DNA of 62,058 nucleotides, the filler included. It is 7 parts of 7 records of this genome, joined end to end, with 100 filler letters (N's around TTAATTAATTAA, not from the genome) between each part and the next. Parts side by side here need not be neighbours in the genome. Positions count along the whole stretch, not along the records: positions 9,149 to 14,846 come from SRR31147125_74366; 6 more parts are not named here. One strand, given 5' to 3'. Below are positions 7,741 through 54,723 of the stretch, in pieces. Position numbers and translations under genes: made by a program. Position 1 is the stretch's first letter, and each line of letters begins with the position of its first letter. The notes below the pieces were generated by a model that saw only the letters and a program-made list of their open reading frames with translations, was not told the DNA's origin and searched no databases.

Positions 7741-9048
7741 TTAGAGGTTTGCTGTTCTATCTGATGGTGTATACCAAATCGGCGAACTCCAAGCACGCTC
7801 CTGAATCGTAGATGGGACATCTTCTAGAGGTTCTATCTTAAGGCTGTTTGCATCATAGGTGCTCCAGCGACAAGTAGGGTTCTCTAAAACACGAACATAG
7901 TAAAAAGCGTCTTGTGATTGATTAAAGTCGGGATCTTCCCAGAGTACTTTAAACTCGGAAACTCCATTTGACTCAGAATCATTACAAGTCGTCAAGTCAA
8001 CTGTTGCTCCATTGTTGGGACAACGGTAGTTACTGTCTGGTTCGAGCCCATCTGAACAAGCGATATCGTATACTTGCTCATGGCTGCCATTGTTATCTGC
8101 CCAGCCTTTAATGACTTGAAGGCGCTGTAAGTTTGCTCCCATGGGGTCTTTAGAAGCCAAGACTAAAAATGATGGGGACTGCTGATTCGGTATATTATTT
8201 TGATGTGAAAGATCTCCCCCCATGGGAGTACCGTTTTGATAAGCCGTTTGGATCATGTTTTGGCGAGGGTGTTGATGAAGATCTTTTGCGTAGTTCCACC
8301 CTGCAAAAAATCTGACGCTGATACGTGTGCCTGAGGTGCCGAATACTTCTTTTCGTAAAAAAGCGTCAAATATAGCATCGCGGCTATTTTCTAATGCCCA
8401 AACACCGGTTAGCCCACCGGGATTATATGCTCTCAACGGAGGGCTGTTGGATTTCGGTTGTTGAGTTAGTCGTCCTTTTGGAGTTGCACCGACTACACCA
8501 CCTTGAGACATATATTGATACTCTTCTGTGGCACCTGGTGTGCCATTTTGGTTATCAGTACCAGCAATGAAACCGTATTTAAAAGGATTAGCTCCTGTTT
8601 TCGTTTTTACTATCAGCCCCTTTTTTAGCCCATTACGCACATAAGAGTCTTCTCGACAATTTACATCTGAGTAGTTAGCGAATTTATCACTTTTACAGTG
8701 ACTTAAAACAGCAGATTCAAAATTACAAAACTCATCAATTGTTCCTGCACCTGTAAGACACTCAGAACTTCCTTTTGATTGATGAATTTCAATCAATGGT
8801 TCTAATCTTTTTCGGCGTTCATAGTCCTCGGTTGTATATTTTTTGGGAGCAAAACTGCTATCCATTCTATCCTCTCTGGCAAAAAACATTCCATCAGACA
8901 AATTACACATATGGGGAATAGTCACTGCTTGACAATTGTTTTCTGTATTGCAGGTTTTATCTAGCTTTTCCCAGAGAATAGAAGCTGTGAAAGCACTATA
9001 TGCGGTAAGCACAGTATCCGGCACAAAATTATTTCTGAAAATAACATT
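7741..9048 (-). CDS. DUF3604 family protein (PHP-like), 5'-truncated at the contig end
   Basis: NVIFR, GGLTGVWA.ENSR, GTSGTRI.VRFF, PMGG, FYYVRVLENPTCRWST, IQERAWSSPIWY. Confidence 0.85.
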   Translation of the reverse strand, partial: NVIFRNNFVPDTVLTAYSAFTASILWEKLDKTCNTENNCQAVTIPHMCNLSDGMFFAREDRMDSSFAPKKYTTEDYERRKRLEPLIEIHQSKGSSECLTGAGTIDEFCNFESAVLSHCKSDKFANYSDVNCREDSYVRNGLKKGLIVKTKTGANPFKYGFIAGTDNQNGTPGATEEYQYMSQGGVVGATPKGRLTQQPKSNSPPLRAYNPGGLTGVWALENSRDAIFDAFLRKEVFGTSGTRISVRFFAGWNYAKDLHQHPRQNMIQTAYQNGTPMGGDLSHQNNIPNQQSPSFLVLASKDPMGANLQRLQVIKGWADNNGSHEQVYDIACSDGLEPDSNYRCPNNGATVDLTTCNDSESNGVSEFKVLWEDPDFNQSQDAFYYVRVLENPTCRWSTYDANSLKIEPLEDVPSTIQERAWSSPIWYTPSDRTANL

Positions 9049-9148
9049 NNNNNNNNNNNNNNNNNNNNNNNNNNNNNNNNNNNNNNNNNNNNTTAATTAA
9101 TTAANNNNNNNNNNNNNNNNNNNNNNNNNNNNNNNNNNNNNNNNNNNN
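9049..9148. other. Artificial contig spacer
   Basis: 44 N + TTAATTAATTAA (stops in all six frames) + 44 N. Confidence 0.99.
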
Positions 9149-9187
9149 GAGTTATTTTGTCAACGTCAAGGAATGTCTTTAGTGGTT

Positions 9188-9290
9188 TTGTTGCCAGCAG
9201 GATTCTGGGAATTCTAAAGGAGCGTGGGATATCTGTATACTGGCGGCAGAGCCACCAGAATTCACTCCCAGGGGAAGACTGGGAGCGAGA
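9188..9290. repeat. Degenerate REP/MITE-like palindromic element
   Basis: Hairpins CTGGCGGC-AGA-GCCACCAG and CTCCCAG-N7-CTGGGAG ending in CGAG; degenerate inverted partner at about 9188-9214. Confidence 0.35.
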
Positions 9291-9320
9291 TTTTAAGATA
9301 TATGATATTCTTAAAATTTC

Positions 9321-10548
9321 CTACCCACACCCACCCTGTCTCGTCACCTTTTTCTCCAGTTTCACTTTGGGTGTAATGGATTTTTTTGGAATGCGCATCC
9401 GCGTCCGGTTCAGCAGCTGGTTGATTTGAGCCGAGTGCGGATTTGAAGGTGTGATGTAATTTTTCACTAACCGGATCGGCAACCAGAGTGCAGTTCTCAT
9501 GTCCTTCATGGCCAAAGGTATCCAGCCAGGCGTTGATGCCGCCCTTCAGGATATAGACGTTAGGAACATTGAGCGTCATCAGATCTTTCCACGCGTTGGT
9601 CGAGCGAACTTCATTGTTACACAAAACAACCACCAACGTATTAGCCGGAGCATCAACCAGGGATTGGGAGATTTGTTTTAACTTATCCATTCCTGTCAAT
9701 TTCGCATCTTTGAGGTGAAAAAGGTTGTAATCCGCTTCATTGCGTACATCCAGCATAATCAGGTTGAGATCGTCATTATTAATCAGGGACAACAGTTCTC
9801 CCGGCTGGATCTGCACCTGATGCTCTGTTAACAAGGCTTTCTTTTCAGCAGGCATGTGCTCCCATTTTTCCGCCAAGGTGGGTTGTCCTATGACTAGAAT
9901 GCCCACAGCAACTGCGAACAAGCTCAAAGCGCCAATGTATCGTGCTTTTGGTTCTTTATTAAGGTCTTTACCGCCAAAAATTCGCTCCAAATGTTCACCG
10001 CCCCAGAACATAAATAAAGCCATCAGAATAACAATCACGACCACGACGCCGGTTGGTAATCCCAACCAGTCCGGGATCGTAAAGCGCCCCATATAACTGG
10101 AATTCCAGAATCCGTCGAACAGGCTGACCGTCTCACCAAAAACAAAAATACCGAATACCGCGCCAAGGACAAAGAACAAGCCATCCAGTTTCAGTGTGGC
10201 CATTCCTACCAAAGCAGTCCCCGGACAATAACCTCCGATAATAAAGCCAAATCCCATAATCAGACCGCCGACAATACCTGGCCAGAGATACGTGGGATTT
10301 ACCCAGATTTTGTCATAATCCAACAACGATAAACCGGAAAAAGCAAAAATGAGTAACATAGCCACAATGATAGCTGTAAACATAACTTTTAGTACGGTCA
10401 TGTCCTTAAAGTAAAATTGCGCTGCCAGTTTCGGCGAGTCACCAAATCCGGACATCTCCAATGCTGTGCCAAATCCCATACCAATGAGTAAATAAATGAG
10501 ATTACCCCCGAAATGTCCAAATATATCAAAAACCGGAAAAGGTCCCAT
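9321..10548 (-). CDS. YeeE/YedE sulfur-transport protein fused to a rhodanese domain; probable true C-terminus ...PKVKLEKKVTRQGGCG (frameshift near 9381-9387)
   Basis: GMGFG, FYFKDMTVLKVMF, GGYCPGT (YeeE Cys); LDVR...FHL...VLCNNEVRS...ILKGGINAW (rhodanese). As sequenced the ORF runs to 9262; the alternative frame stops at 9321. Confidence 0.85.
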
Positions 10549-10645
10549 ATTTTATGTCCTTTAAAACTTTTGTAATAGTACGTATCATCTAAATTTCTAT
10601 CATATAAATCTGCAGGATTTATAAAATCCTGAAATAAAGAAACAT

Positions 10646-11197
10646 TTAATTCCATGTCTTTCTGACAAAATAAGCCAAAGCATAACCGCCACCAAAAACA
10701 GCGAACATAAAAGCCCAGCTGCCAACAGACAGAACAGCTCCACCTGACAAAGCCTGACCGGAGGTACAGCCACGAGCGAACCTGGCGCCATAGCCCATAA
10801 TAGCACCGCCAACAAAAGCCAGGGCCCAGCGCTGTTTGACAGTGATCCCGGGTCCTTTTCCGGTTTTAACACGCAGCCGATTATGCGCGAGACCGGATAT
10901 AAATCCACCAACAATAGTCCCAATAGTCAGGAAAACAATCCAATGATCCAAAGGATTTTTTTCACCACCTGCCATCTTGAGTAGGTAAGGTGTACGGTCT
11001 ATGTGCTCGGGAGAAACCTTGTCCTCAAAAAACACCATAATGCGGTTGAGACCTCCTGACGCTCCCAAACCGTTGCCGGTGATGTAAAAAGCCAAAAACA
11101 GAACCAGGCCCAGTAACAAGCCGCCCAGATATGGATTCAGGTACGGCTTTGCCTGAGATTTATTACGGAGTAAACCGTCCTTTAAAAGACCACTCAT
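10646..11197 (-). CDS. YeeE/YedE family protein (short half-transporter)
   Basis: NPYLGG, GLGASGG, GTIVGGFISG, GYGARFARGCTSGQALSG (conserved Cys). Confidence 0.9.
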   Translation of the reverse strand: MSGLLKDGLLRNKSQAKPYLNPYLGGLLLGLVLFLAFYITGNGLGASGGLNRIMVFFEDKVSPEHIDRTPYLLKMAGGEKNPLDHWIVFLTIGTIVGGFISGLAHNRLRVKTGKGPGITVKQRWALAFVGGAIMGYGARFARGCTSGQALSGGAVLSVGSWAFMFAVFGGGYALAYFVRKTWN

Positions 11198-11199
11198 TT

Positions 11200-13914
11200 T
11201 TAATCTATCTCCTTCTTTTGCGAATGAATTTCAACCTCTTCCCAACCAACAATCATAGCTTTTATACTTGAAAGAGGTGTATGACCTGTCGTGGTCAGGT
11301 ACATATGCATGATGAGAAATGATGTAAAAAACCAGGCGATCAACGAATGGAAAGGTATCAAAAATCCAAGACCGCCCAACTTTGCAGCCACATCAGGCCA
11401 TTGTTGAAAACCCCATATAACAATGCCTGTGAAAATTTGTAAAGGTAAAAGTATATTCAAAATAACAAGATAAGTAACCTTTTGCAAAGGATTCAACTTT
11501 TTATCGACATCCTTTTCAAATGGATGAGAACTCCCCTTAAAGATGCCTTTCAAATAAAAAAGTCCCTGATCGATGGCCTGATTAAAAAATCCTTTAGGCT
11601 CCGGCAGGTAACCCTTGATTTTTCCACTGGAAAAATGATAAAAAGCAGCTAAAAAGGCATTAAAGAGCAGAATAAAACCAAGCACGTTATGAATGATCAC
11701 GGCAGGAGCAAAATCGATAAAACCAAAAACAGCAGGTGCATGAATGATAAGACCGGTAAAGATTAAACCAATGATAGCCAAGGCCTGCAGCCAGTGCCAG
11801 AACCGTTCGTAAGCGGTATACAGATACACTTTTTTGAGAGGCGTTTGATTTGTTTTGCGCTTTGCCAATAATACAATTCGAAGACCGCCATGTATAGAGA
11901 TACCGAGCAGGACCGCGAGTAAAGTCAGTGCCCCTAACCATTGAACGAAAGAAATTTTATCATGACCAATAATGAACAAGCCGGCTTTTCTGGTTGAAGG
12001 TTTAAAAACCAGCTCACCGATCTGATTCTCTTTTATGTGTCCGTTCAAAACAACATTTGTATTTTTGATAAATTCTGGTGTAACATTTTGCGGCCAGGAC
12101 GATGCCAATATTATGGATTTTGTAACCCTGGAATCGTTATTATGACACGTTTCACAATTTTTGGTAGCCCAATCACCGTGGGTTACATTATGGTGTATAC
12201 CATAAGGTTGAATATCAGCATGAATACGCGGATTTTCTACGCCGACTTTTTCAAGTCGAATTGCAACGGCTTTAATTTTATCCTCAGTATTCAGAAGCAA
12301 TTCATCAGAACCTATCTTGCCATCCTTATTCTCATCCAGGGCAGCAAGAATATCCGGGTGATAAGCTTTCTTTTGAAAATAAGCCTTCTTTAAATCCAGC
12401 AAACGAACCGGTTGTGCTTTTTCCCCGCCAATCCAATACCAGGATGTAATCAGATTAAATGGTGTCAACCGTCTCTTACCGTTTTCTTCTATTCTGGGCA
12501 GCAGGATTGGTTCATAACCTTCGATCAAGGCATTAATGGATCCTTTTTCTCCTTTAATACCACGGCATTCTGTACGCGGCTCGCCAGAAAAATCCAGAAC
12601 GGTCCAGTCGAGCACGCGTCTGGCTGGTGCATGTAATCTAGGAATATGACAGGATTCGCAACTCACAGCATCCATGTGCGCTTGTTTATATGGCAGCCAA
12701 TCGTGGGTAACGTTAATATCATGGCAGGATTCACAACGCCGCATGGAATTTTCATATCCGGTACGATAGGCACTCTGCCCTTTGGCAAAATTGTGACTTG
12801 GACGTTTTAAATAGTCGTCTATATCCATACGTCGTGCATCGAACGTGAGATGTGCCGGCCGGGTTTTCTCTGATTCTCTATAATAAATGGGATTATTAAT
12901 CGAATAATGACAATCCACACAATCAACCAAACGTTCACTATGAATATCCCATGTTCGGTATAGATCTTTTTTTCCAGCCAAATTCATACCAGATTCTGAT
13001 AGTTTTTGTGGTGAGATAATCTGGCCTGTTGTCTCCGTGTTATAGTACTCAGGCAGACAACCTGTCGTCACAAGCGGCAATTCTCTTGCTTCATGCACAA
13101 GGCCATGACAAAGACCACAATTATCATTGGTTGGATCCTGGATTTTCATGAATGCAGGTTTAAGATTCTGAAATTTATCAAAAGCCAGTGCATTCCATTT
13201 CCAGGTTCCGCTTTTCTTATTTACAATGCCGCTACCATTTAACGTGGCTGTATTGGCCCATTCGAAACGACCTTTATCAAGCTCTTTTTTTCTGGCGTCA
13301 TTATCCGGTTGTGGTATATGACACAGGAAACAATTCATTTCCACCACACCGGATTTACTCCAATCCCATGGTTTGGATTCTCCAGTTTCAGGATCCAGGA
13401 TACTGGCTTCCGGATTAGTCCTGTCAGGACGCAGCGTGAAAAGATCAATACCATTTTTACTCTTTTCTGCCGGTCCACCACCAACATGGCGAACACCAAA
13501 TGTTTTCACCCAATCTGCTGTGGTCATATCCTTTGCCTGATTCTCATAAAGACTCAGGGTTCGATATCCTATTGGATCCCATTGACCAAAATATTCCGAG
13601 CTTAAATCCCAGTCTCGATGTCCGGTTTCATTTGGAGTCTTTTTTACGTCAGTCAAACCTGCTTCCGAATGAAAACTGTGACGTGTTATATAGTCTGTAT
13701 CATGACAACCACCACACGTTTTCATGGTTGAAACAGAAGCACCGGTATTGAGAACACGCTGTCCATTTTTATCCAGTAGTGGAAAGGACGGATGCATCGT
13801 CTGTTTTGTTGCCGCCTGCAGATTGTTTGTTAATAGAATCATATACAAGAGGACAAAAAAGACCGAAATAATTTTTACTAGTTTATGATAAATATTCAAT
13901 TCAGAGTAAATCAT
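11200..13914 (-). CDS. Periplasmic heptaheme c-type cytochrome (Otr-like) fused to a C-terminal diheme cytochrome b (PhsC/FdnI-like)
   Basis: Signal peptide; seven CxxCH (CGGCH, CFLCH, CGLCH, CVDCH, CESCH, CESCH, CETCH); C-terminal TMs with ERFWHW, IIHNV, NPLQK, PFHS, IMHMY. Confidence 0.85.
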   Translation of the reverse strand: MIYSELNIYHKLVKIISVFFVLLYMILLTNNLQAATKQTMHPSFPLLDKNGQRVLNTGASVSTMKTCGGCHDTDYITRHSFHSEAGLTDVKKTPNETGHRDWDLSSEYFGQWDPIGYRTLSLYENQAKDMTTADWVKTFGVRHVGGGPAEKSKNGIDLFTLRPDRTNPEASILDPETGESKPWDWSKSGVVEMNCFLCHIPQPDNDARKKELDKGRFEWANTATLNGSGIVNKKSGTWKWNALAFDKFQNLKPAFMKIQDPTNDNCGLCHGLVHEARELPLVTTGCLPEYYNTETTGQIISPQKLSESGMNLAGKKDLYRTWDIHSERLVDCVDCHYSINNPIYYRESEKTRPAHLTFDARRMDIDDYLKRPSHNFAKGQSAYRTGYENSMRRCESCHDINVTHDWLPYKQAHMDAVSCESCHIPRLHAPARRVLDWTVLDFSGEPRTECRGIKGEKGSINALIEGYEPILLPRIEENGKRRLTPFNLITSWYWIGGEKAQPVRLLDLKKAYFQKKAYHPDILAALDENKDGKIGSDELLLNTEDKIKAVAIRLEKVGVENPRIHADIQPYGIHHNVTHGDWATKNCETCHNNDSRVTKSIILASSWPQNVTPEFIKNTNVVLNGHIKENQIGELVFKPSTRKAGLFIIGHDKISFVQWLGALTLLAVLLGISIHGGLRIVLLAKRKTNQTPLKKVYLYTAYERFWHWLQALAIIGLIFTGLIIHAPAVFGFIDFAPAVIIHNVLGFILLFNAFLAAFYHFSSGKIKGYLPEPKGFFNQAIDQGLFYLKGIFKGSSHPFEKDVDKKLNPLQKVTYLVILNILLPLQIFTGIVIWGFQQWPDVAAKLGGLGFLIPFHSLIAWFFTSFLIMHMYLTTTGHTPLSSIKAMIVGWEEVEIHSQKKEID

Positions 13915-13934
13915 TTATTCATTCCTTTTAAATC

Positions 13935-14846
13935 CTAAAAGTTTAAAGATCTACCACCACTATTCATTGGATCACCCTCATATCCGAGAGCTTTCCAATC
14001 CAGTCTGATATTTTCAGATTCACCATGGCAGTCAATGCATTGAAGTGCATGTCCCTTAGGTGCAATCATATGTGACAGCGGCCAAAACATGGCTGTTTGA
14101 ACGAATCCATAACTACCGCTATATTCTAAATCGACAGCCTTTGAGCCCAGGCGAACTGCTTTATCCCAGTCAAATTCAGTCCAATACCCGCCCTTTCCAT
14201 AGGTTTGGGGCTGCAGCAGATAATTCTTATTTTTATCATATATCTGTTTTGCTGTATGAACTTTAAATGGCCAGATTTTGGCTTTTTTATCCCTTATTTC
14301 ACCACGTGGTGTATTCAGCAATACTGCTTCACTGGGATCGATTTTATCTCCCAGTAAATAATGATCTGCCATACCATTATACCAGTAATAATTGGGCCGG
14401 ATATTTTTCTCATAGACAAAACTTCCCTTTATCTTGAGATACGTGTGTGTATCTTCAGGCAAATCCTGACCAGCTGCCGACCAGTCCCAGTGCATTTTAG
14501 TCGCCTCTTTAACAGCTGCTGTAGGAATATGGCAGGTCTGACAGGCTACAGACTGAACGTGAGCATTAATGCGTTCGTCTTTATGAAGATTTTCCGCATG
14601 ACAATCTGTGCAATATACCTGGTTCCCATCTTCCAGGCTTACGGAAATAGCACGACCTTTTATTTCATGATTTTGTGATTTATGACAGTCTGTGCACAGA
14701 AAATTATATTTTCCCATGTGCACGTCAATACGTTCTGTTGGATAGTAGAGGCTGCCGTCCAGATCACCGTGCTTGACAGCATTACCGCCGCCACCACGAA
14801 AATGACAACCACCACAGTTTTCCCGTGTCGGTTCACCAACACTTTT
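13935..14846 (-). CDS. otr: Octaheme tetrathionate reductase (Otr) family cytochrome c, 5'-truncated
   Basis: Frame open from the contig end: KSVGEPTRENCGGCHFRGGGGNAVKHGDLDGSL...DVHM; ACQTCHIP, TKMHWDWSAAG, KIWPFK.H, HMIAPK..ALQCIDCH; five CxxCH in the visible part. Confidence 0.85.
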   Translation of the reverse strand, partial: KSVGEPTRENCGGCHFRGGGGNAVKHGDLDGSLYYPTERIDVHMGKYNFLCTDCHKSQNHEIKGRAISVSLEDGNQVYCTDCHAENLHKDERINAHVQSVACQTCHIPTAAVKEATKMHWDWSAAGQDLPEDTHTYLKIKGSFVYEKNIRPNYYWYNGMADHYLLGDKIDPSEAVLLNTPRGEIRDKKAKIWPFKVHTAKQIYDKNKNYLLQPQTYGKGGYWTEFDWDKAVRLGSKAVDLEYSGSYGFVQTAMFWPLSHMIAPKGHALQCIDCHGESENIRLDWKALGYEGDPMNSGGRSLNF

Positions 14847-14946
14847 NNNNNNNNNNNNNNNNNNNNNNNNNNNNNNNNNNNNNNNNNNNNTTAATTAATT
14901 AANNNNNNNNNNNNNNNNNNNNNNNNNNNNNNNNNNNNNNNNNNNN
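14847..14946. other. Artificial contig spacer
   Basis: N-run with TTAATTAATTAA. Confidence 0.99.
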
Positions 14947-23431: not shown

Positions 23432-23531
23432 NNNNNNNNNNNNNNNNNNNNNNNNNNNNNNNNNNNNNNNNNNNNTTAATTAATTAANNNNNNNNNNNNN
23501 NNNNNNNNNNNNNNNNNNNNNNNNNNNNNNN
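23432..23531. other. Artificial contig spacer
   Basis: N-run with TTAATTAATTAA. Confidence 0.99.
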
Positions 23532-33395: not shown

Positions 33396-33495
33396 NNNNN
33401 NNNNNNNNNNNNNNNNNNNNNNNNNNNNNNNNNNNNNNNTTAATTAATTAANNNNNNNNNNNNNNNNNNNNNNNNNNNNNNNNNNNNNNNNNNNN
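33396..33495. other. Artificial contig spacer
   Basis: N-run with TTAATTAATTAA. Confidence 0.99.
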
Positions 33496-41700: not shown

Positions 41701-41800
41701 NNNNNNNNNNNNNNNNNNNNNNNNNNNNNNNNNNNNNNNNNNNNTTAATTAATTAANNNNNNNNNNNNNNNNNNNNNNNNNNNNNNNNNNNNNNNNNNNN
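41701..41800. other. Artificial contig spacer
   Basis: N-run with TTAATTAATTAA. Confidence 0.99.
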
Positions 41801-54623: not shown

Positions 54624-54723
54624 NNNNNNNNNNNNNNNNNNNNNNNNNNNNNNNNNNNNNNNNNNNNTTAATTAATTAANNNNNNNNNNNNNNNNNNNNN
54701 NNNNNNNNNNNNNNNNNNNNNNN
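54624..54723. other. Artificial contig spacer
   Basis: N-run with TTAATTAATTAA. Confidence 0.99.

Follow-up and report, generated by a model that had tools for sequence, protein, structure and literature searches.

The Shewanella enzyme of the Otr family of octahaem cytochromes acts on tetrathionate, nitrite and hydroxylamine, the activities known for Otr in vitro being reductive, and the arm of the sulfur carrier SoxY has the motif GGCGG. The canonical motif of this swinging arm is given as VTIGGC in the accessible part of PMC11237559, where a divergent soxY (S3) is also described directly downstream of otr in lucinid symbionts; this neighbourhood independently connects Otr with a carrier. 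For the two-gene forms of the YeeE-type sulfur channel, the accessible text of PMC11582611 states that PmpA and PmpB each have one essential cysteine, that PmpB-type halves carry a cysteine matching Cys91 of StYeeE, and that a heterodimer is proposed. Here we present a gene on the minus strand of a 62,058-nucleotide stretch of DNA, the whole of which was analysed and is called the window below. Three known ideas come together in its product: half of a YeeE-type channel, a rhodanese-like domain and a carrier cysteine in the style of SoxY. We consider it probable that the gene encodes an intact fusion of a PmpB-like half, a rhodanese-like domain and a cysteine-tipped arm, that it is the last gene of an Otr operon, and that the tip cysteine carries sulfur outside the membrane.

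The annotated open reading frame (ORF) at 9262..10548 on the minus strand encodes 428 amino acid residues and ends in a junk tail, ...SKKIHYTQSETGEKGDETGWVWVGNFKNIIYLKISLPVFPWE. A second minus-strand frame, ORF 9321..9515, ends in ...KKSITPKVKLEKKVTRQGGCG followed by TAG at 9321-9323; the terminus of this frame reads ...TPKVKLEKKVTRQGGCG-stop, with TGT at 9327-9329 as the codon of the tip cysteine. The initial annotation had drawn attention to just such a GGCG-stop tail, hidden from the ORF track in an alternative frame, and the sequence is as it described. The closest homolog, P0001 (409 residues), is 90% identical to the annotated frame over residues 1-393, to ...DAHSKKIHYT. Past residue 393 it reads PKVKLEKKVTRQGGCG, unlike the annotated frame of the window. 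The second frame of the window is identical to residues 393-409 of P0001 at 17 of 17 positions (E 3e-11), so the alternative-frame ending is not a chance match.

The minus-strand letters around the break are ...CAT TCC AAA AAA ATC CAT TAC ACC CAA AGT GAA.... One A too many in the A7 run at 9381-9387 had been proposed as the cause, with the exact position marked as uncertain, and this part of the proposal has to be replaced. The annotated frame still matches P0001 downstream of the A7 run (SKKIHYT), so that run is read correctly and the break is located at TAC-ACC-C|AA-AGT. One public sequencing run, X1, contains 0.97 of the sampled words of 9110-10600. It is possibly the source sample of the window, so it is perhaps not independent of the assembly, and it is kept as contigs, which drop rare variants. 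An X1 contig of 16167 nt (depth 35.5) shows no substitutions over 9149-10600 (1452 nt); the sole difference is GG inserted behind plus-strand position 9368, and at 9381-9387 the contig does not differ from the window. Run X2, from the same sample, did not cover the stretch. With GG behind 9368, the minus-strand C3 at 9369-9371 becomes C5 and the codons become TAC ACC CCC AAA GTG, or YTPKV, as in P0001. The repaired frame restores the ending ...IHYTPKVKLEKKVTRQGGCG, which P0001 shares, and gives a product of 409 residues; almost all homologs have 405-417 residues, compared with 428 in the annotated frame. The window assembly is without two bases of the C5 run, and the sequenced population carries an intact gene. 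In the annotated frame, 35 additional residues form a false tail that replaces the real end. For the window this corrects the annotation: the gene is not aberrant but an intact member of a large family, and its key motif was masked by a two-base assembly gap.

The same observations bear on the possibility that the frameshift is real and that we are dealing with a pseudogene, or with a phase variant in the off state, whose protein has no cysteine arm. The C5 of the X1 contig at depth 35.5, with no other difference over 1452 nt, argues against this, as do the rest of the gene, which is 90% identical to an intact homolog and has no further lesions, and the operon partners in the window, which are intact. 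On the other side, the deposited assembly reads C3, a change in homopolymer length is a common natural switch, minor variants are invisible in contigs, and among the related copies one is split (L028) and three have odd tails (L029, L038 and L062). We regard a real frameshift as unlikely. Programmed ribosomal frameshifting could in principle reach the tail from the sequence of the window as it stands, because slipping by +1 at ACC-C-AAA would carry the ribosome from one frame into the other. The resulting protein would lack the proline of the conserved [YF]TPKV segment, the tail of the homologs lies in one continuous frame (apart from a few broken copies and the candidate selenocysteine-tipped copy described below, from metagenome-assembled genomes, MAGs), and the X1 contig has an in-frame C5. 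Programmed frameshifting was rejected as scarcely credible, since it deletes a conserved residue and is unnecessary given the C5 contig.

The hairpins directly 3' of the true stop (9290-9317 and 9262-9288) have a minimum free energy of -21.6 kcal/mol and a z-score of -3.52, and none of 200 shuffled sequences was as stable. The false tail runs through both of these stable hairpins, which fits a 3' untranslated region (UTR); the segment 9262..9317 on the minus strand is probably a structured 3' UTR that the annotated frame misreads as protein. A scan of 9149-9400 for terminator patterns found none, because no T-tract is present, and no further copy of the GC-rich hairpin at 9263-9286 was found in the window when up to 3 mismatches were allowed. 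Three 31-nt X1 contigs (depths 55-240, 3 mismatches) are stacked on the post-stop hairpin at 9260-9292, and one end of a 162-nt X1 contig (depth 52.8) also maps there. This hairpin may recur as a repeat in other parts of the sample.

The cysteine-tipped tail is a property of the family. All 120 listed homologs end in ...[YF]TPK[VI]KLxxKxxxxGGCG or close GGC(G/S) variants, the last residues being GGGCG in 64, QGGCG in 23, SGGCG in 21, TGGCG in 3, QGGCS in 2 and GGCGS in 2, with KGGCG, GGCSS, GGCGG, GKGCG and AGGCG found once each. Cluster representatives at 50% identity yielded 2026 matches at E<=1e-3. Among the best 150 of these, the full-length members down to 31-40% identity end in ...KKKxGGC, REGC, RRGC or GGCG after a stretch rich in lysine and arginine, and the exceptions are fragments and frame-broken entries. 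In the related loci, a GGC[GS]0-2 ending is present in 72 of the 77 ORFs of at least 330 residues (76 loci, from 80 species-genome loci). In the alignment of 284 sequences the tip cysteine is kept in 275, the remainder being 7 gaps and 2 other residues. The conservation of a terminal GGCG, for which an alignment of homologs had been suggested as the check, is confirmed by these counts. The flexible last residues of the real product, within a tail of about 60 residues, end in a near-invariant cysteine. Relatives are encoded in at least 599 matched stretches of a collection in which each species is represented by one genome; most of these are from Anaerolineae and other Chloroflexota, and some of the genomes are labelled KSB1, Cytophagia or Acidobacteriota. 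The databases name these proteins only 'YeeE/YedE family protein' or 'rhodanese-related sulfurtransferase'.

Frame breaks in the fusion gene recur among draft assemblies. In other MAGs, the copy in L028 is split (L028:6001-7236), and the copies in L029, L038 and L062 have odd frames at the end.

One of the related copies has a different tip. In L014:7238-7290 the gene ends in ...GCT TCC GGA GGT GGG TGA GGC TAA, where TGA replaces the codon of the tip cysteine and is followed by one glycine codon and a stop. A hairpin of 7 bp begins 14 nt past the TGA (free energy, dG, -11.3; z -2.27), and the L014 genome encodes SelB (326.6 bits against a cut-off of 242). On these sequence features, the arm tip of L014 is a candidate cysteine/selenocysteine (Cys/Sec) pair with the other family members. 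Cys/Sec pairs are typical of redox-active positions. If confirmed, the pair would speak for a reactive nucleophile at the arm tip. A Sec-tipped form of the arm was not found in the accessible part of a selenoprotein review (PMC13188914).

The N-terminal part of the fusion protein makes up the PmpB-type half of a YeeE-type sulfur channel that is split over two genes; it is extended by transmembrane (TM) helices, the rhodanese-like domain and the tail. Residues 43-191 match positions 12-158 of the 310 positions of Pfam Sulf_transp PF04143 with 55.9 bits (cut-off 27), and P0001 matches the same profile with 54.1 bits. The initial annotation had treated this region as a YeeE protein with the cysteine motif GGYCPG. 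The cysteine stands, since the channel motif GG[YF]CPG is kept in 282 of 284 sequences (and Glu31 in 283 of 284), but the chain contains only half a channel. The other half, with an invariant cysteine of its own in the motif GCTSG (79 of 79 relatives), is encoded by the gene located directly upstream of the fusion in 78 of the 80 loci. Both channel halves match models of the thiosulfate transporter TsuA.

The rhodanese domain, residues 249-342, matches PF00581 with 52.1 bits (cut-off 22.2). In a Foldseek search of the P0001 model against the PDB, the listed top matches were all rhodanese-type domains or proteins containing one, for example 3mzz, 1gmx and 1qxn. The window copy has the loop VLCNNEVRS, a six-residue active-site loop with the cysteine at residue 310. 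The residue at this position in the 284 sequences is Ser in 203, Cys in 22, Gly in 21, Asp in 15, Ala in 11 and others in 12; in the 63-sequence alignment A1 it is Ser in 46, Cys in 8, Asp in 6 and Gly in 3. Those that hold the cysteine, in a loop CNNE[VI]RST, are the nearest relatives of the window, including P0001, P0003, P0005, L001 and L042 (labelled KSB1), L003 and L057. Judged from these alignments, the catalytic rhodanese cysteine is a feature of the lineage and not of the family. A relay of three cysteine stations in one chain had been proposed for this protein. The window does keep all three (channel, rhodanese and tip), but with 22 of 284 sequences holding the second the arrangement is not a family property. 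The conserved core is two cysteines in the fusion chain and one in the partner half, and a three-station relay is possible in the lineage of the window.

The position of the arm relative to the membrane can be predicted. An AlphaFold2 model of P0001, built with a 63-row alignment, has a mean predicted local distance difference test score (pLDDT) of 79.1 and a predicted template modelling score of 0.74. It consists of a four-TM core with short helices (6-33 through 121-138), two long helices (166-192 and 202-220) and then the rhodanese fold; in the tail, pLDDT is 77-90 at residues 361-400 and below 50 at residues 405-409. The crystal structure of StYeeE has its N terminus outside, and helix H7 reverses the topology between the two halves (PMC7449682, accessible part). 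The mean number of Lys and Arg residues per successive segment across alignment A1 is 0 (N terminus), 2.4 (first loop), 0.3, 1.0, 1.0 (with 3.2 Asp and Glu) and 3.3 (the nine-residue loop 193-201). With the N terminus outside as in StYeeE, six helices, and loop 193-201 inside, the core would end outside, helix 166-192 would run inward and helix 202-220 outward, leaving the rhodanese domain and the arm outside. Homology and charge bias together thus predict that the rhodanese domain and the tail share the outer side of the cytoplasmic membrane with the haem domains of the operon's cytochromes. Segments rich in Lys and Arg lie at the N terminus, in the middle loop and at the C terminus of the partner half, in keeping with an inverted topology that leaves both termini inside.

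The gene context was compared over 80 related loci by tblastn of the window ORFs and by ORF clustering. The tblastn searches found the fusion in 80 loci, the PmpA-like half in 78, the 904-residue cytochrome in 72 and a 262-residue ORF in 60; no ORF of the contigs neighbouring in the window was found in more than 5 of the 80. The genes have a fixed order on the same strand: an ArsR-type regulator (38 loci), a cytochrome of about 480 residues (60), a cytochrome of about 900 residues (71), the PmpA-like half (78) and the fusion last (80). The fusion gene closes a conserved operon of ArsR, an Otr-family octahaem cytochrome, a seven-haem cytochrome c/b fusion, the PmpA-like half and the fusion, and in the window the partners are intact. 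The cytochrome of about 480 residues has eight CxxCH motifs in 55 of 57 copies. Its full-length copy in L001:1202-2632 matches TIGR04315 with 562 bits (cut-off 375) and gives E 3.8e-151 to PDB 1sp3, which we take to be the Shewanella octahaem enzyme; the frame of the window copy is open to 14846. The larger cytochrome has seven CxxCH motifs in 55 of 57 copies and seven in the window. The closest model to its cytochrome b part (residues 660-891 of 11200-13914 on the minus strand) is that of the thiosulfate reductase subunit PhsC, NF011582, at E 3.4e-40 and below the cut-off.

In an alignment of the Otr-like proteins from 45 loci (A2), K103 and C111, the latter in the segment NNFCIG and outside any CxxCH, are invariant besides the eight haem motifs. 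These two residues are candidates for active-site residues able to meet the arm.

The following sequence of events could connect these components. A sulfur species, attacked or accepted by the tip thiolate, would be held covalently as a persulfide or S-thiosulfonate, as on the SoxY arm. The arm would then present the bound species to the Otr-type cytochrome for reduction or oxidation, this cytochrome being linked to the quinone pool through the seven-haem/cytochrome b protein. The product would next be imported through the split YeeE channel, entering at the outer mouth; the outer cysteine of this channel is that of the partner half. In the lineage of the window, the rhodanese domain with its catalytic cysteine may load or unload the arm, which the domain cannot do in most relatives. 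For the Otr/arm system we lean towards the reductive direction, because the cytochrome b is PhsC-like and Otr is known to act reductively in vitro. The presence of an ArsR-type regulator is in keeping with sulfur sensing, although this family is broad. Beyond this, we put forward a more tentative proposal, which is possible rather than probable: that Otr-family cytochromes act on the sulfur (or selenium) adduct at the Cys/Sec tip of the arm and not on free tetrathionate, and that the five-gene module is a Sox-independent, quinone-linked, carrier-based extracytoplasmic system for sulfur redox reactions, its product going directly into a split YeeE channel. The fusion family gives a testable idea of what Otr enzymes act on in cells. 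It also gives a testable idea of how sulfur is handed over from an outside carrier to a YeeE importer, a step that the accessible part of PMC11582611 only hypothesises for SoxYZ and SoxT.

The terminal cysteine could have a role other than that of a substrate carrier. It might be a gate or regulator, forming a disulfide or persulfide with the outer cysteine of the channel (GCTSG), or a metal or haem ligand for the cytochromes. The near-invariance of the tip cysteine and of both channel cysteines is compatible with this, and a rhodanese domain that is inactive as a catalyst in the majority of members (203 of 284 have Ser) would suit docking or regulation. We nevertheless consider such a role rather unlikely, in view of the design of the tail: a Gly-rich, flexible C-terminal cysteine after a basic linker is that of the SoxY carrier arm, and a soxY variant adjoins otr in other bacteria (both from the accessible part of PMC11237559). 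The candidate Sec at the tip of L014 is likewise more readily explained by a reactive nucleophile than by a structural ligand.

It is also conceivable that the module handles selenium, another chalcogen or a nitrogen oxyanion in place of sulfur. We hold this to be very unlikely, since the cytochrome b is closest to thiosulfate reductase PhsC, the channel halves match TsuA models and the arm motif is of the sulfur-carrier type. What speaks for it are weak matches to the models of YedE selenium transporters (TIGR04112, E 2e-4 to 2e-3) and the fact that the accessible part of PMC13188914 counts both the YeeE/YedE proteins and the TIGR04315 octahaem cytochromes among the selenoprotein families.

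Several observations weigh against the reading of an intact, sulfur-carrying fusion at the end of an Otr operon. X1 may be the source sample and consists of contigs only, and a minority variant with the 2-nt deletion may be present in the population. The tail is missing in 5 of the 77 long ORFs: L029, L038 and L062 have odd frames, L032 meets a contig end and L014 has the TGA. The Otr-like gene is found in 60 of the 80 loci and the ArsR gene in 38, not in all, of which short contigs explain a part. Foldseek on the full P0001 model returned only the rhodanese part and not YeeE, and the TM loops have low pLDDT. The topology is a prediction combined with homology to one crystal structure. The SoxY profile PF13501 gives no match at E<=10 on any of three intact proteins (P0001, L001 and L017). 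Finally, what is bound as adduct, what serves as substrate and which way the electrons flow in the arm system are inferred for every member of the family. Taking these points together with the evidence given above, we still favour the sulfur-carrying fusion.

The positions of the features are collected in Table 1.

Table 1. Features of the fusion gene and of the contig that carries it, in window coordinates.
Feature	Position	Strand	Basis or remark
True coding region of the fusion protein	9321..10548	-	YeeE N-terminal half (PmpB-like), two extra TM helices, rhodanese-like domain and Cys tail; about 409 residues
C3 homopolymer, frame break, 2 nt missing	9369..9371	- (G3 on +)	X1 contig, P0001 alignment
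A7 run (T7 on +), unchanged	9381..9387	-	X1 contig, P0001 alignment
Tail-coding stretch PKVKLEKKVTRQGGCG and TAG stop	9321..9371	-	Tip Cys codon 9327-9329
Two stem-loops after the true stop	9262..9317	-	Folding: 9290-9317 and 9262-9288
Channel Cys codon (GGYCPG, residue 108)	10225..10227	-	Counterpart of the second conserved Cys in full-length YeeE
Rhodanese active-site Cys codon (VLCNNEVRS, residue 310)	9619..9621	-	Alignments
Rhodanese-like domain, residues 249-342	9523..9804	-	Pfam PF00581, 52.1 bits
Partner gene, C-terminal YeeE half (PmpA-like, 183 residues) with GCTSG Cys	10646..11197	-	Pfam Sulf_transp positions 173-309 of 310
Seven-haem cytochrome c fused to membrane cytochrome b (PhsC-like), 904 residues	11200..13914	-	7 CxxCH; Pfam Ni_hydr_CYTB 699-888
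Otr-family octahaem cytochrome c, C-terminal part, truncated by the contig end	13935..14846	-	TIGR04315 positions 180-440 of 440, 330 bits
Contig-joining spacer, N44 + TTAATTAATTAA + N44	9049..9148	.	Contig carrying the gene is 9149-14846

Six spacers with paired 44-base N-runs are present in the window, at 9049-9148, 14847-14946, 23432-23531, 33396-33495, 41701-41800 and 54624-54723. The window thus consists of separate contigs joined end to end, and two genes with a spacer between them are not neighbours. A DUF3604 gene at 7741..9024 on the minus strand lies on another contig and is unrelated to the operon; it covers only positions 195-591 of the 591 positions of the profile, its 5' part being missing at the contig end.

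In the open-access literature searched (PubMed Central and bioRxiv), no description was found of a YeeE-half/rhodanese protein with a terminal cysteine arm or of this Otr operon, and no Otr system with a tethered carrier and channel was found described. The comparison is therefore made with the separate parts. The first enzyme of the operon is a clear member of the octahaem tetrathionate reductase family (TIGR04315, 1sp3), a similarity that concerns the neighbour gene and not the fusion. The rhodanese fold is common to the fusion protein and to periplasmic single-domain sulfurtransferases such as Sud of Wolinella (PDB 1qxn) and GlpE (1gmx), and the copy in the window has the six-residue cysteine loop CNNEVR(S). 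Unlike in Sud and GlpE, the catalytic position is occupied by Ser, Gly, Asp or Ala in most members of the fusion family, and because the catalytic cysteine is missing in most members, rhodanese chemistry cannot be the conserved function.

With respect to PmpA/PmpB and full-length YeeE (TsuA, PDB 6LEO), the N-terminal 190 residues of the fusion correspond to the first half of PF04143 and the upstream gene to the second. The equivalents of StYeeE Cys91 and Cys293 are kept, one per half, in the fusion and its partner, following the equivalence given in the accessible part of PMC11582611. PmpB is described there as a protein of about 130 residues with four helices, to which the fusion adds two TM helices, the rhodanese-like domain and the cysteine arm. 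YeeE has a known soluble partner, the TusA-like YeeD/TsuB, which is cytoplasmic, whereas the carrier appended to the fusion is predicted on the outer side.

The closest parallel to the tail is the SoxY arm, a resemblance claimed from the outset. The likeness holds at the level of the motif (compare VTIGGC, PMC11237559, accessible part): both have a flexible Gly-Gly-Cys-Gly(-Gly) C-terminus after a KV-rich strand. SoxY is extracytoplasmic, and an outer location is predicted for the arm of the fusion. The likeness does not extend to detectable sequence homology. PF13501 has no match in the window frames at E<=0.01, in addition to the result on the intact proteins given above, and SoxY was found in none of five operon-carrying genomes (0 of 5), while the Thermus control was detected. 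The arm of SoxY is borne on an Ig-like fold paired with SoxZ, while that of the fusion is borne on a rhodanese-like domain anchored to a channel half. By analogy, the tail of the fusion protein would work like the SoxY arm without being a member of the SoxY family.

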